This document shows positions 60,607-64,000 of a DNA stretch of 64,000 nt, piece by piece. Position numbers and translations under genes: made by a program. The DNA lies in the NCBI GenBank assembly GCA_050250895.1, contig JBFWNU010000001.1:2468891-2532890 (forward strand). The letters run 5' to 3'. Origin of the DNA: Vulcanimicrobiota bacterium (lineage in GTDB: Bacteria > Vulcanimicrobiota > Xenobia > Xenobiales > JADMJV01). How positions within the stretch are numbered: the stretch's first letter is position 1; each line of letters opens with the position of its first letter. The notes under the pieces were generated by a model. The model saw only the letters and a list, made by a program, of their open reading frames with translations. It did no database searches and was not told the DNA's origin.

Positions 60607-60948
60607 CTAGTGCGAGACCTCTTCAAGCCACTCGCGCAGCACAGCCGTGCGGGCGCGGGTGGTGGTGGCCATGCTGGCGTAGTAGATCATCGGCGCCATG
60701 CTCCCGCCCTCATAGAGTGCCTGCCGGGCCTTGGCCTCGGCATCGCGGTACTTGATCCAGATGAGCTGAGCGTCCACCAGCTTCTCCCGCACCGAGGCTC
60801 CGAGTTGGGGCTTAAGCTCTTGCCAGACCTGGTTGAGTTCGCGGTCGGCGGCTTCGTAGTCTTGCAGAGCCCGGGCGTTGAGTTCGTGTTGGTTCTGGGC
60901 GAAGGTCGGGACGGTGAGGAGAATCAACAGGGCTAGAAGGTATCTCAT
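60607..60948 (-). CDS. Lysozyme inhibitor LprI (DUF1311) family protein
   Basis: Signal peptide; ADRELNQVW..L..AQLIWIKYRD..GGSMAPM. Confidence 0.85.
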   Translation of the reverse strand: MRYLLALLILLTVPTFAQNQHELNARALQDYEAADRELNQVWQELKPQLGASVREKLVDAQLIWIKYRDAEAKARQALYEGGSMAPMIYYASMATTTRARTAVLREWLEEVSH

Positions 60949-61010
60949 CGGTATTGCTTCCTCCGCCCGGCGCTACGCCCTGCCAAGCCGCCCGCTGAGC
61001 CCGGGCCTTG

Positions 61011-62150
61011 GCTCCCACGGAATCCCGGGAGCGTGCTCCCACAAAACCCGGGAGCTGGCCGCCGCCCGCCATGGCGCGCACCCCAGCCCGCCGCGGCAAC
61101 CCGCCGCTGCCGGGCCGGGCCGAGGCTGTGCTCCCACGAAATCCCGGAGCATGCTCCCACAAAACCTGGGAGCCGGTCGCCGCCCGCCGTGGCGCGCACC
61201 CCAGCCCGCCGCGGCAACCCGCTGCCGGGCCGGGGCTGTGCTCCCACGAAATCCCGGAGCATGCTCCCACAATACCCGGGAGCTGGCCGCCGCCCGCCCG
61301 CGCTCCAGCCCGCCAGGGCGCGCTCCCGCCCGCCGAGGCAACCCGCCGCTGAGGGGCCGAGGCTGTGCTCCCACGAAATCCCGGAGCATGCTCCCACAAA
61401 ACCTGGGAGCCGGTCGCCGCCCGCCACGGCGCGCACCCCAGCCCGCCGCGGCAACCCGCCGCTGCCGGGCCGGGGCTGTGCTCCCACGAAATCCCGGAGC
61501 ATGCTCCCGCAAAACCTGGGAGCCGGCCGCAACCCGTCGAGCCTGGGCCCTGGCTCCCACGGAATCCCGGAGCATGCTCCCCCAAAACCTGGGAGCCGGT
61601 CGCCGCCCGCCGGGCCTGGGCCCTGGCTCCCACGAAATCCCGGAGCATGCTCCCGCAAAACCCGGGAGCCGGCCGCCGCCCGCCCGCGCTCCAGCCCGCC
61701 ACGGCGCGCACCCCAGCCCGCCGCGGCAACCCGCCGCTGCCGGGCCGAGGCTGTGCTCCCACGAAATCCCGGAGCATGCTCCCCCAAAACCTGGGAGCCG
61801 GTCGCCGCCCGCCATGGCGCGCACCCCAGCCCGCCGCGGCAACCCGCCCGCCGGGCCGGGGCTGTGCTCCCACGAAATCCCGGAGCATGCTCCCACAAAC
61901 CTGGGAGCCGGCCGCCGCCCGCCAGGGCGCGCACTCCAGCCCGCCGCGGCAACCCGCCGTTCGCCGGCCGCCGCCCGCCACGGCGCGCTCCCGCCCGCCG
62001 CTCCGGCCGCAACCCGTCGTTCGCCGGACCGGCCGCCGCCCGCCCCGTCGCGCACTCCAGCCCGCGCGGCAACCCGCCGCTCGCCGACCGCTGCCCGCCA
62101 CGCCGCGCTCCAGCAACTGCGCCAGCCCGCCGCCGCCGCCGCACGCCTGG
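61011..62150. repeat. REP/BIME-like mosaic repeat array: nine copies of a ~44-bp double-hairpin core with repeated GC-rich linkers
   Basis: Core GCTCCCACGAAATCCCGGAGCATGCTCCCACAAAACCTGGGAGC at 61011, 61130, 61240, 61367, 61480, 61553, 61626, 61755, 61866. Confidence 0.85.
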
Positions 62151-62166
62151 CCACGGCCAGCCAGCG

Positions 62167-62235
62167 AAACAAAATTTGAAATAGGGGTTGACACCGGCAA
62201 ATATCAGTCGTATACTCTCAACAGCAAATATTGCT
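62167..62235 (+). promoter_or_regulatory. Strong sigma70 promoter with UP-like tract and operator-like GCAAATAT repeats
   Basis: TTGACA (62188)-N17-TATACT (62211); GCAAATAT at 62197 and 62224; AGCAA-ATA-TTGCT dyad at 62223-62235. Confidence 0.85.
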
Positions 62236-62251
62236 AAAGCAGCGAAGAACT

Positions 62252-62392
62252 ATGTATCTCGATAACACCAACATAATGATCGAAAGCCCGTTTACGGGCT
62301 GCTCGTCCCACGTCCCCGGCAAACCCGGCGTTATGCGGCGCGGTTGGGAACTAGGACAAACTCGATCGATGGCAGGGGTGCAAGCCTTGTAA
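62252..62392 (+). CDS. Candidate leader peptide (46 aa, MYLDNTNIMIESP...MAGVQAL)
   Basis: ORF inside the 5' leader, ending 27 nt before the terminator hairpin; weak SD. Confidence 0.35.
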   Translation: MYLDNTNIMIESPFTGCSSHVPGKPGVMRRGWELGQTRSMAGVQAL

Positions 62393-62419
62393 AAATGGGC
62401 TTGAATATCGGTTCCGCCG

Positions 62420-62460
62420 AAACCCGCCACTGCCGCGACTATCGCCCTGGCGGGTTTTTT
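62420..62460 (+). terminator. Intrinsic terminator in the 5' leader (attenuator)
   Basis: AAACCCGCCA...TGGCGGGTTTTTT between the promoter and the first gene's SD. Confidence 0.75.
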
Positions 62461-62482: not shown

Positions 62483-62689
62483 ATGATGACCATTCACGTG
62501 CGTTTTGAGGGCAAGAGCTTTGATCTCGACGGCCGGAACCTGAGCCTGAACACTCAGGCCAGCGACCGCGAGATTCGCAACAGCTTGGCTCGTTACCTGG
62601 AGGTCGAGGTCGGTCGCTTCCAGGACTACGTAATCGACCGGCGTCCTAGCGGCGCTGTGGTCGTGCGACCCGAAGCCGTCTACGGCTAA
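62483..62689 (+). CDS. Small ubiquitin-like (beta-grasp-like) protein ending in Gly
   Basis: SD AAGGAG; beta-beta-alpha-beta-beta pattern; C-terminal VRPEAVYG. Confidence 0.65.
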   Translation: MMTIHVRFEGKSFDLDGRNLSLNTQASDREIRNSLARYLEVEVGRFQDYVIDRRPSGAVVVRPEAVYG

Positions 62690-62819
62690 CTCCGAGCAAC
62701 CCCAACGGGTCGCTGGTTCGGTTCGCCTCCCCCTCCTGTAGCCGAACCACAGACTGACCATGCCAACCCTCGATGTGGGGTGCCCGGGTTCGCCCGGGCA
62801 CCCCGGCCCAAAAGTCTTA

Positions 62820-62979
62820 TCGCTTCGCGACCCTATCTCTGAAGCTTACATACCTCTTGAAGAGCAGTTTGATCGAAAGATCCTGTAGGTTCGAATCCTA
62901 CCAACTCGACTATCGAGTTGTGGCGAAATTGGTAAACGCGACTGTTGGTTACTGCGCTTTAGTAACTTGCGCGAAGCGA
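62820..62979 (+). ncRNA. Y-RNA (YrlA)-like RNA 1 with circularly permuted tRNA-Leu-like domain
   Basis: Terminal stem TCGCTTCGCG/CGCGAAGCGA; variable arm, T-arm GTAGG-TTCGAAT-CCTAC, loop-closed acceptor, then D-arm GCG-AAATTGGTAAA-CGC. Confidence 0.8.
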
Positions 62980-62987
62980 CATTCTTT

Positions 62988-63150
62988 GTCCCGGTCGGGC
63001 CGCGCGCCCTTACCGATGAAGCATACATACTGGTAAAAACGACTTCCAATCGTTAGTAGGTTCGAATCCTGCCACCTCCACCACATGGGGGTGTGCAACG
63101 GGCCGCAAGGCCCACTGCTTTGTGAACTCGCGCGATGGCCTGGTCGGGAC
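62988..63150 (+). ncRNA. Y-RNA-like RNA 2 with permuted Ala/tmRNA-type acceptor domain
   Basis: 14-bp terminal stem; T-arm GTAGG-TTCGAAT-CCTGC; CACCTCC-A-CCA joined to GGGGGTG; same scaffold motifs as RNA 1. Confidence 0.75.
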
Positions 63151-63160
63151 TATTTTTGCA

Positions 63161-63383
63161 GAACGGAGGTGCACGAGATGAGACATAACCTGGGGAACAT
63201 GTGGGGCGATCGCTCCGGCGTGCGCCCGCCCATCTTCTATCCGACCGCAGGTCGCGGTTGAGTTGACCCGCCTGGTCCCGTAGGGAAGGGCGAGCAGAAT
63301 AGGGGTTCGACTCCCCCCATCCCGAGCCACCGGGGTGGTCCCGTGGGTGGCGGGTAGCACTCGTCCAGGCAGGCATCCAGTTC
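63161..63383 (+). ncRNA. Third structured RNA with permuted T-arm/acceptor module (boundaries uncertain)
   Basis: GGGG-TTCGACT-CCCC, CATCCCG-AGCCAC-CGGGGTG, enclosed by ACCCGCC/GGCGGGT. Confidence 0.5.
63178..63261 (+). CDS. Candidate 27-aa peptide MRHNLGNMWGDRSGVRPPIFYPTAGRG
   Basis: SD GGAGGT 7 nt before ATG. Confidence 0.3.
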   Translation: MRHNLGNMWGDRSGVRPPIFYPTAGRG

Positions 63384-63400
63384 GATTTTAGGAGGCCCTC

Positions 63401-63553
63401 GTGGCGATACGACGACGCGTCGTTGCCGGGCGGCCCCTGGCTCACCGATACAATCACCAGCGTTGGACCAGCACCTGGCAGTTAACCAGGCAGCGCGAGC
63501 TCGTCTATCGTTTGGTCAGGGCCAGGCGCCGTCCGCGCCGACGCACACCATGA
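63401..63553 (+). CDS. Candidate 50-aa Arg-rich peptide
   Basis: SD AGGAGG 5 nt before GTG; 16 of 50 residues are Arg. Confidence 0.45.
   Translation: MAIRRRVVAGRPLAHRYNHQRWTSTWQLTRQRELVYRLVRARRRPRRRTP

Positions 63554-63629: not shown

Positions 63630-64000
<371 letters not shown>

Follow-up and report, generated by a model that had tools for sequence, protein, structure and literature searches.

We studied a stretch of DNA of 64,000 nucleotides (nt), called the window below, from a Vulcanimicrobiota bacterium (GTDB lineage Bacteria; Vulcanimicrobiota; Xenobia; Xenobiales; JADMJV01; assembly GCA_050250895.1, contig JBFWNU010000001.1, positions 2,468,891 to 2,532,890 of the forward strand), and in it an RNA of 163 nt, RNA 2, encoded on the plus strand at positions 62988-63150. 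RNA 2 is probably a Y RNA which mimics a transfer RNA (tRNA) in the manner of YrlA and which represents a new subtype. We read it in this way because it shares the logic of YrlA: it is adjacent to a gene for a Ro60-like protein, its two ends are paired, and its T-arm is followed by an acceptor stem closed by a loop. RNA 2 has a stable structure, it belongs to a family of RNAs, this family is linked to the gene, and the protein encoded by the gene is remotely homologous to Ro60. Between an open reading frame (ORF) of 68 amino acids (aa) and the Ro60-like gene there are three RNAs with a T-arm, named RNA 1, RNA 2 and RNA 3 in the order of their positions. From the end of RNA 2 at 63150 to the start of this gene at 63657 there are 507 nt, on the same strand, which lies within the distance of about 4 kb or less, same strand, that is used as a criterion for YrlA. 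The Ro60-like gene and the RNA family, both absent from the original prediction made from this sequence, are the context which explains RNA 2.

Structure of RNA 2

RNA 2 is delimited by a closing stem of 20 base pairs (bp), with one bulged A, which starts at 62988 and finishes at 63150. The original prediction had placed the element between these same ends, and the parts which it had listed (TGGTAAA, a stem-loop, a T-arm, CACCTCC-ACCA, a 3-nt linker, GGGGGTG and a GCAA hairpin) proved exact to the base. In the minimum free energy (MFE) structure, the outer 5' strand of the stem (62988-63002), which contains GGUCGGG, is paired with the outer 3' strand (63136-63150). The latter is followed by UAUUUUUG, to 63158; this T-run at 63151-63158, directly 3' of the closing stem, may be a 3' end or a terminator, and a structure scan of the site did not call a 3' terminator for RNA 2. 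Inside the outer stem lies what we call the scaffold. Its 5' half (63003-63030) consists of the strand CGCGC of a helix P1, an internal loop CCUUACCGAU, the strand GAAGC of a helix P2 and a conserved AUACAUAC; its 3' half (63117-63134) consists of GCUUU (P2), GUGAACU and GCGCG (P1).

The tRNA-like module is enclosed between the two halves of the scaffold. It begins with an unpaired, D-loop-like UGGUAAA (63031-63037), which we suppose to be in contact with the T-loop; by eye, 10 of the 14 RNAs aligned for this subtype show UGG(U/A)AA. Then come a hairpin resembling an anticodon arm (63038-63054, AACGA/CUUCCAA/UCGUU, 5 bp and a 7-nt loop) and a T-arm (63056-63072, GUAGG-UUCGAAU-CCUGC) which fits the T-arm columns of the Rfam models tRNA and tmRNA_permuted. 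The acceptor is a closed hairpin (63073-63093) containing the pair G3.U70: its 3' strand CACCUCC (nucleotides 66-72, at 63073-63079) is followed by an encoded A73-C-C-A (63080-63083), a linker CAU (63084-63086) and the 5' strand GGGGGUG (nucleotides 1-7, at 63087-63093), ACCA and CAU together forming the 7-nt loop. Finally a GCAA-tetraloop hairpin, GGGCC-GCAA-GGCCC (63100-63113), occupies the place of the D-arm, and hairpins are found at the same position in L018 and L027 (with a GCGA loop) and in L075. It had been proposed that RNA 2 and RNA 1 differ by a permutation point situated at the D-arm. The D-loop-like GGUAAA does lie on the 5' side, but the difference is better described as the loss of a D-arm, replaced by a GNRA hairpin. 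A 23-bit match to the Rfam tRNA model joins pieces of RNA 1 and RNA 2 over a gap of 106 nt and was rejected as an artefact.

The MFE computed by RNAfold for RNA 2 is -76.3 kcal/mol, to be compared with -55.7 +/- 3.7 kcal/mol for 200 dinucleotide shuffles (z = -5.52), none of which equals it. The DNA of a related strain (contig X1, about 94% identical over 62735-63374) contains 3 substitutions and no insertion or deletion in the 163 nt of RNA 2, against 22 listed substitutions and 7 insertions or deletions in the other 477 nt. All 3 substitutions keep or improve pairing, the variants of related strains at 63140 and 63141 preserve the pairing of the outer closing stem, and the tRNA-like part is unchanged in related strains. 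This points to purifying selection on RNA 2 at short range.

The scaffold family and the Ro60-like gene

We fetched 79 related loci from several phyla and built a covariance model, R1, from 14 RNAs having the architecture of RNA 2. Upstream of the gene and on its strand, almost every locus has an array of RNAs with a shared scaffold. In the family, the 5' half of the scaffold reads CGCGC, CCYNAC, a few bases, RAAGC, N and UACAYAC, and the 3' half reads GCUUU, a few bases and ACUUGCGCG. A regular expression for the 3' motif, applied to the 79 loci, finds 208 occurrences upstream of the gene and 3 downstream on the strand of the gene, versus 6 and 8 on the other strand; of the 71 loci that extend 1 kb or more upstream of the gene, 64 have the motif. 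Model R1 gives 266 matches at E <= 1e-3 in 80 loci or sources, all of them on the strand of the gene and about nine of them, by eye, located 3' of it. RNA 2 itself is scored at 99.9 bits over its full length (model positions 1-124), but it is one of the 14 seed sequences and its match is obtained by construction; the independent support comes from the 252 matches which are not in the seed.

For the covariation analysis we kept the 108 best matches (E <= 1e-10), from 58 sources, in an alignment fitted to the model and therefore favouring it. In these 108 RNAs, 97.0% of the pair cells are paired and 24 of the 28 pairs have changed on both sides. None of 500 shuffles is as high, and sliding the partners by 1-3 columns lowers the pairing to 30-54%. 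P1 and P2 are paired at 99.8% and 99.3% and both covary; all five pairs of the T-arm covary (99.6% of cells paired), as do all seven pairs of the acceptor hairpin (99.0%). The motif RARGC-N-UAC is found in 101 of the 108.

The scaffold is the sole part common to all members, including short copies made of the scaffold only. What it carries comes in three layouts. In the first one we find unpermuted tRNA look-alikes, many of them above the Rfam tRNA threshold, whose acceptor stem is the ACAUAC/GUAUG of the scaffold. The second one is permuted and similar to RNA 1, with an anticodon-like hairpin, a T-arm, a closed 7-bp acceptor hairpin and a D-arm; a D-arm is present in RNA 1 and in most other permuted members. 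The third one is that of RNA 2, without D-arm. Arrays hold up to nine tRNA-like RNAs as counted by regular expression, and over ten related loci Rfam gives 48 tRNA matches and 1 TPP match.

Some members stand apart. At positions 2597503-2597641 of contig C1 of this genome (G000) there is a free-standing member with a TTGACA/TATAGT promoter and a terminator, adjoining an integrase fragment; it is a permuted mimic of tRNA-Asn, with the loop CUGUUAA, G73, an encoded CCA and a 4-nt linker. Scaffold-only copies of 62-83 nt, devoid of any tRNA-like insert, occur on the minus strand in the same genome (C4:33180-33242 and C1:3292878-3292939). Others closely precede the Ro60-like gene in many loci, some appearing as R1 matches that end 60-130 nt before its start; copies in this position could serve as binding sites for autoregulation.

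The Ro60-like gene starts at 63657 on the plus strand and leaves the window at 64000; it is complete in L001 (1657-3087) and encodes 476 aa. We compared a profile of 21 members of this protein family with a profile of 7 TROVE proteins of the same phylum: hhalign aligned them over 324 columns with a probability of 97.9% and E = 3.3e-13, the alignment spanning the later part of the TROVE region and the vWA/MIDAS domain. The ESM Atlas model of exactly this 476-aa protein (pLDDT 0.82) resembles TROVE/vWA_Ro60 clusters with TM scores of 0.72-0.77 over 423-449 residues; in the matched clusters 96-100% of the members have Pfam TROVE and, in two clusters of the three, 33-85% have vWA_Ro60. The profile comparison and the structure model thus point to a divergent, remote homologue of Ro60, with a predicted ring and a vWA domain. 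A search of the PDB with the single 476-aa sequence returned nothing, and the PADLOC defence models and NCBIfam gave no match. The genome (17 contigs, 99.6% complete) contains four paralogues of the protein, and no canonical TROVE gene was found in it. The second paralogue, 0.85 kb downstream, is 61% identical and weakly matches phrog_850, 'RNA-binding protein' (E 1.2e-5).

The protein family is widespread: 2431 of 8000 scored candidates have E <= 0.001, and 556 of 599 matched genome stretches were confirmed. Among the 120 matches listed, identities are 58-72%, except for the query's own cluster, and the hosts among the matches are cyanobacteria, Acidobacteriota, Armatimonadota and others; the named members are annotated 'hypothetical' or 'vWA domain-containing'. 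Homologues also turn up in clusters of the Atlas that are rich in phages, and an uncultured phage of 595 kb encodes one with 45.7% identity.

The first gene of the module is the 68-aa ORF (62483-62689, plus strand), which has a strong ribosome-binding site. It lies upstream of the RNA array in 49 of the 79 related loci, with 40-75% identity by tblastn. Pfam gives no match for it; its structural look-alikes in the Atlas include DWNN, PB1 and Prok_Ub, at TM scores of about 0.6, and on these models it may have a ubiquitin-like beta-grasp fold, which we mention as a lead only. Directly 5' of its ribosome-binding site, at 62384-62460, a GC-rich hairpin followed by a T-run resembles an intrinsic terminator and would be the upstream border of the module. 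Further upstream, at 60800-62240, long overlapping ORFs in several frames of both strands have repetitive translations rich in Pro, Arg, Gly and Ala; the pattern suggests tandem repeats of high GC content and not genes.

RNA 1 (62818-62982, plus strand) is a sister of RNA 2 in the scaffold family, with 56.7 bits for model R1 and a fold z of -3.72. Its parts come in the order scaffold, GAAA hairpin, T-arm, closed 7-bp acceptor hairpin, D-arm and scaffold, and its acceptor has C1-G72 and A73, without CCA. Only 5 nt separate RNA 1 from RNA 2, which suggests that both come from one precursor. RNA 3 (about 63262-63395, plus strand) also combines a T-arm with a closed acceptor hairpin of 7 bp (C1-G72) but is outside the scaffold family: it has no R1 match and its fold energy is not significant (z = -0.20). 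The 5' strand of its acceptor is that of the resident tRNA-Pro(AGG), GGUCCCG appears twice in it, and a look-alike is found at the same place in L002. A little past the end of the window, between the two Ro60-like paralogues, a gene resembling tRNA-Asn(GUU) (L001, 3213-3455) is interrupted after the anticodon by an insert of about 170 nt. Its two halves are intact (acceptor, D-arm, T-arm and GCCA end). The insert matches nothing in Rfam, group I introns included, and is therefore not a recognisable group I intron.

The acceptor and the anticodon-like loop

The acceptor had been described originally as of the Ala/tmRNA type and the anticodon loop as of the Gly(UCC) type, and both descriptions are right. 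The genome encodes, on another contig, an ordinary one-piece transfer-messenger RNA (tmRNA) of 382 nt with a tag peptide, which begins with GGGGGUG and ends with CACCUCC-ACCA. The acceptor of RNA 2 is identical to it on both strands over 7 bp, including G3.U70, A73 and CCA. Among the 64 resident tRNAs, including Gly(UCC) and three tRNA-Ala genes of canonical length, none has this stem, the best one agreeing at 6 of 7 positions on the 5' strand. The T-arm of RNA 2 differs in sequence from that of the resident tmRNA; therefore, its acceptor is no recent copy of the end of tmRNA. As had been claimed, G1-C72, G2-C71, G3.U70 and the discriminator A73 can be read from the sequence, and all four acceptor-branch determinants of alanine identity listed for bacteria in Table 1 of PMC9976931 (A73, G2-C71, G3.U70 and G4-C69) are present. 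The loop CUUCCAA is that of the resident tRNA-Gly(UCC). For glycine, C35, C36 and G1-C72 are right while A73, 2-71 and 3-70 are wrong, and the word 'chimeric' used for RNA 2 is fair in the sense that the alanine acceptor set is combined with a part of the glycine set. RNA 2 fails the criteria of a complete tRNA-Ala cloverleaf: it has no D-stem (and no G20), its loop is UCC and not NGC, and its acceptor is closed. In its MFE structure, A73 can also pair with U-1, which makes the stem one of 8 bp.

We then rejected the general rule that the acceptor copies a tRNA or the tmRNA of the host; the match in the genome of RNA 2 stands alone. In the same-order orthologues, which belong to another genus, the acceptor is GGAGGCG/CGCCUCC+GCCA, and the tmRNAs of their genomes and of one genome of the same genus are exactly GGGGGUG/CACCUCC+ACCA. 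In four same-order genomes, a tRNA carrying the GGAGGCG/CGCCUCC acceptor was sought by pattern, and the matches obtained were all fortuitous and within coding sequence. None of the five other G3.U70 units, all from cyanobacteria, matches the tmRNA of its host. On the sequences compared, the acceptor copying that of tmRNA is a feature of the lineage of RNA 2 only. Among related strains, whose DNA contigs are about 94% identical, this copy persists unchanged. The product of the pair frequencies in the family, which is no formal test, gives roughly 1% for a chance match.

We examined the variation of the acceptor in ten RNAs of the RNA 2 type with an intact 7-bp acceptor hairpin, and in 55 acceptor hairpins of the whole family. 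Within the subtype, G1-C72 and G2-C71 are constant (10/10). The original prediction had taken the conservation of G3.U70 in homologues as a test of itself, and this conservation is not seen: the 3-70 pair is A-U in eight of the ten, G-C in one and G.U in RNA 2 only, and G3.U70 occurs in 9 of the 55 family hairpins, 6 of these 9 having A73. Nucleotide 73 is G in nine of the ten, A being found in RNA 2 only. NCCA is encoded in five of the ten (the rest having GCUA, GCUC or GCAU) and in 6 of the 55. In four lineages (L057, L067, L069 and L073) the acceptor hairpin has shrunk to a short stub. Over the family, N73 is a purine in 41 of the 55 hairpins and can pair with N-1 in 34, and the base preceding G1 is U in 43, versus 36% of U inside the loops.

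The anticodon-like loop varies as well. In four same-order orthologues, three of the seven variable core sites fall in the 7-nt loop, with UCC versus GCU. The units at about 1501-1623 of L094-L097 are near-identical RNAs in which the loop switches between CUUCCAA and CUGCU(C/A)A; all variable sites fall in loops or junctions, and one pair of RNAs differs in the 7-nt loop alone. On a bolder reading, which we consider unlikely, the arrays would be sets of tRNA impersonators, each specific for an identity, whose anticodon-like loops switch quickly among close relatives.

Readings of RNA 2 and meaning of the family

According to the descriptions of YrlA in PMC4201824 and, by Wang et al. (2018), in bioRxiv 10.1101/312249, this RNA is encoded on the same strand beside Ro60, its paired ends carry the Ro60 site, and its inner module, in which the T-arm is followed by the acceptor stem as a closed hairpin, 'resembles a circularly permuted tRNA'. 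RNA 2 is like the YrlA of Salmonella Typhimurium and Mycobacterium smegmatis in being a small RNA beside a Ro60-type gene on the same strand, in the pairing of its 5' and 3' ends, in its T-arm followed by a loop-closed acceptor-like stem and in the presence of several RNAs per locus. Binding by Ro60/Rsr in cells and a pseudouridine 55 made by TruB also count among the marks of a YrlA-type RNA. As reported in PMC4201824, RNase P cleaves the YrlA of M. smegmatis both in vivo and in vitro, and this RNA, the sole YrlA with an acceptor stem of 7 bp, the length found in RNA 2, then acquires CCA. In the same paper, Chen et al. (2014) link the 7-bp length to cleavage by RNase P and raise the possibility of aminoacylation; the search which they describe was limited to genomes annotated with TROVE proteins. 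RNA 2 is unlike YrlA in having the family scaffold CGCGC...RAAGC-N-UACAUAC / GCUUU...ACUUGCGCG, a separate anticodon-arm-like hairpin with a 7-nt loop and an encoded ACCA, a neighbouring protein which Pfam TROVE misses, and a conserved 68-aa ORF in the module. It is also similar to Yrn1 of Deinococcus radiodurans and to metazoan Y RNAs by its long terminal stem, the presumed protein site, and to Yrn1 by its T-arm and anticodon-arm-like hairpin, the D-arm being incomplete on the Yrn1 side. The outer stem has GGUCGGG on both strands, to be compared with the GGUCCGA contacted by Ro60, a lead only; nothing seen here points to a tethering of PNPase.

On the Y RNA reading, the paired ends of RNA 2 form a long stem carrying the scaffold (P1, internal loop, P2 and UACAUAC), and on this scaffold the Ro60-like ring protein, whose gene starts 507 nt downstream, would dock. 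The T-arm stacked on the 7-bp acceptor helix forms, with the anticodon-arm-like hairpin, a tRNA-like module, to which the GG-containing stretch could add an elbow contact. RNA 2 and RNA 1 are probably transcribed together, on a transcript which perhaps also includes the 68-aa ORF and the Ro60-like gene, and RNA 2 would then be excised; according to published work, the Y RNAs of M. smegmatis and D. radiodurans are cut from a shared transcript. While the scaffold holds the protein, the tRNA-like module would act as an effector, offering a surface with the shape of tRNA or tmRNA to a tRNA-binding partner, or it would stabilise the RNA. Protein binding, co-transcription and the role of the mimic are inferences.

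Several facts weigh against this reading, which depends on a binding between RNA and protein that is itself predicted. The relatedness of the 476-aa protein to Ro60 is only remote: Pfam gives no TROVE match, only a sub-threshold VWA_2, and a profile search of the PDB finds two TROVE chains at only E 0.73, alongside chance matches to G proteins. The 5' motif GNCGAAN0-1G of YrlA is absent from RNA 1, RNA 2 and RNA 3 and is found by regular expression in 7 of the 108 family RNAs. RNA 2 has no D-stem, the GCAA hairpin (63100-63113) being there instead, and thus lacks the D stem-loop which YrlA has 3' of the acceptor. No family of Rfam 15 reaches its gathering score on it. Four family members of this genome lie far from any Ro60-like gene, so that the linkage is not obligatory, and at least three of these four have promoter-like hexamers, by eye. 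Two metatranscriptome runs with small shares gave no RNA contig over the core of RNA 2 (62988-63094): contig X19 covers 62700-62774, 63382-63481 and 63661-63700, and contig X20 covers 63095-63248. Such contigs are blind to RNA ends and to strand and are therefore uninformative on expression and processing; in the search of RNA runs, no run shared half of the words.

One extension of the Y RNA reading is that the hairpin is opened and charged: RNase P would cut between U63086 and G63087, CAU would be trimmed, and the free A73-CCA end would be recognised by alanyl-tRNA synthetase (AlaRS) through G3.U70 and A73, giving a two-piece alanylated RNA which could meet EF-Tu or SmpB. RNA 2 is a strong candidate for this because of its 7-bp stem, as in the M. 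smegmatis YrlA cut by RNase P, its U-1, shared by 43 of the 55 hairpins (with N73 a purine in 41), its encoded ACCA, NCCA being encoded in half of the subtype, and its full alanine acceptor set; moreover, its acceptor is that of the resident tmRNA and of no resident tRNA. But the pairing of A73 with U-1 makes the stem 8 bp long and N73 and N-1 can pair in 34 of the 55, so that U-1 may merely extend the helix, and a leader paired with RCCA hinders RNase P, according to PMC9433436. Moreover G3.U70, the CCA and even the hairpin are dispensable in relatives, as the counts for G3.U70 (1/10 and 9/55) and the four lineages with a stub make clear; the same-order orthologues do not copy their own tmRNA, none of the five other G3.U70 units does, and RNA 2 has neither a D-arm nor G20. 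By analogy, cleavage of RNA 2 by RNase P seems to us doubtful but conceivable. We consider alanylation unlikely, and likewise the complete sequence of opening and charging. It is equally unlikely that, by impersonating tmRNA, an aminoacylated two-piece Y RNA couples the Ro60-like ring to translation or trans-translation (EF-Tu, SmpB, stalled ribosomes). A different view makes RNA 2 a decoy or sponge for enzymes acting on tRNA, such as anticodon nucleases, modification enzymes and phage or defence factors; the RNA would work largely alone, with the Ro60-like protein as a chaperone or a mere neighbour. Anticodon loops of many kinds which look genuine by eye, the clustering of 3 of 7 variable core sites in the loop (UCC to GCU, in four same-order orthologues), the homologues in phage-rich clusters and in the 595-kb phage, and the ordinary tRNA arrays beside some loci (L034, L074) speak for it. 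Against it stand the close and strand-specific association of the RNAs with the Ro60-like gene, which favours a joint function, and the absence of matches to PADLOC defence models, and the hotspot in the loop may reflect an absence of constraint; all in all a decoy appears rather improbable.

In two distant genomes (L034, 1-1660; L074, 1-1060) the module is immediately preceded by large arrays of ordinary tRNA genes. Rfam gives 21 tRNA matches in L034 and 16 in L074, most of them ordinary genes of these arrays and a few overlapping family units. Arrays of this kind are seen in phages and mobile elements.

Two other explanations were weighed. The element might act only in cis, as a structure for processing, stability, termination or autoregulation of the operon transcript, no free RNA being made. 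RNA 2 does lie between two ORFs of the same strand, a U-run follows its closing stem, and scaffold-only copies closely precede the gene in many loci, for example ending 60-130 nt before its start; but a terminator has no need of a covarying T-arm, a 7-bp acceptor and an anticodon-like arm, and members without a Ro60-like neighbour exist elsewhere in the genome with promoter-like hexamers, one with a terminator hairpin. We hold this to be very improbable. The last explanation, a genuine circularly permuted tRNA or two-piece tmRNA gene, competent for translation once mature, is nearly excluded, and we give it hardly any weight. The parts do come in the order expected of permuted genes, with T-arm, 3' acceptor strand and CCA before a short linker and the 5' acceptor strand, as in the acceptor piece of a permuted tmRNA and the beginning of its coding piece; RNA 2 also shares with the tRNA-like domain of tmRNA (RF00023, RF04321) a T-arm, the lack of a D-stem and, for the resident tmRNA, the acceptor with ACCA. 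Its best Rfam match is tmRNA_permuted (E 0.0034), yet with 26.8 bits for a gathering score of 47 and over 38 nt only (63056-63093), and ARAGORN finds no tRNA or tmRNA gene in the window. From GGGGGUG to the end of the closing stem there are 56 nt, mostly paired, which leaves no room for a tag frame or pseudoknots; the linker has only 3 nt, there is no mRNA-like part, and the genome already possesses a normal tmRNA of 382 nt besides its 64 tRNAs, among which are Gly(UCC) and three tRNA-Ala. The parallel with the precursors of two-piece tmRNAs, drawn in the original prediction, fails on these grounds. There is no D-stem, and the identities of acceptor and anticodon disagree. Circularly permuted tRNA genes, as described in PMC3978253 for Cyanidioschyzon merolae and some archaea, also have a closed acceptor hairpin and termini paired elsewhere, but in that description they use a bulge-helix-bulge endonuclease and a circular intermediate, and RNA 2 cannot give a complete cloverleaf. 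Such an endonuclease has not been reported in bacteria, according to the statement on this subject in bioRxiv 10.1101/312249.

For a YrlA-like Y RNA, as we probably have here, the type of system, Ro60 with a tRNA-mimic Y RNA, is known; its new variants are the scaffold, the family to which the partner protein belongs, the 68-aa ORF, and an acceptor that encodes CCA and is identical to that of tmRNA. In the literature and in Rfam 15 we found no description of the scaffold family or of the Ro60-like family with tRNA-like arrays; an overlap with the YrlA loci of Chen et al., some of which are cyanobacterial, is possible.

Bacterial Y RNAs with tRNA-like modules are known. The loci described here form a large conserved module, which associates a relative of Ro60 missed by the domain databases with arrays of tRNA-like RNAs and a small ORF; Ro60-type systems are hence under-counted by searches keyed to Pfam TROVE. 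The family offers a natural variation on the mimicry, from unpermuted and permuted forms to a tmRNA/Ala acceptor with an encoded CCA, and RNA 2 is a concrete molecule on which the long-standing idea that Y RNAs are aminoacylated can be tested directly.

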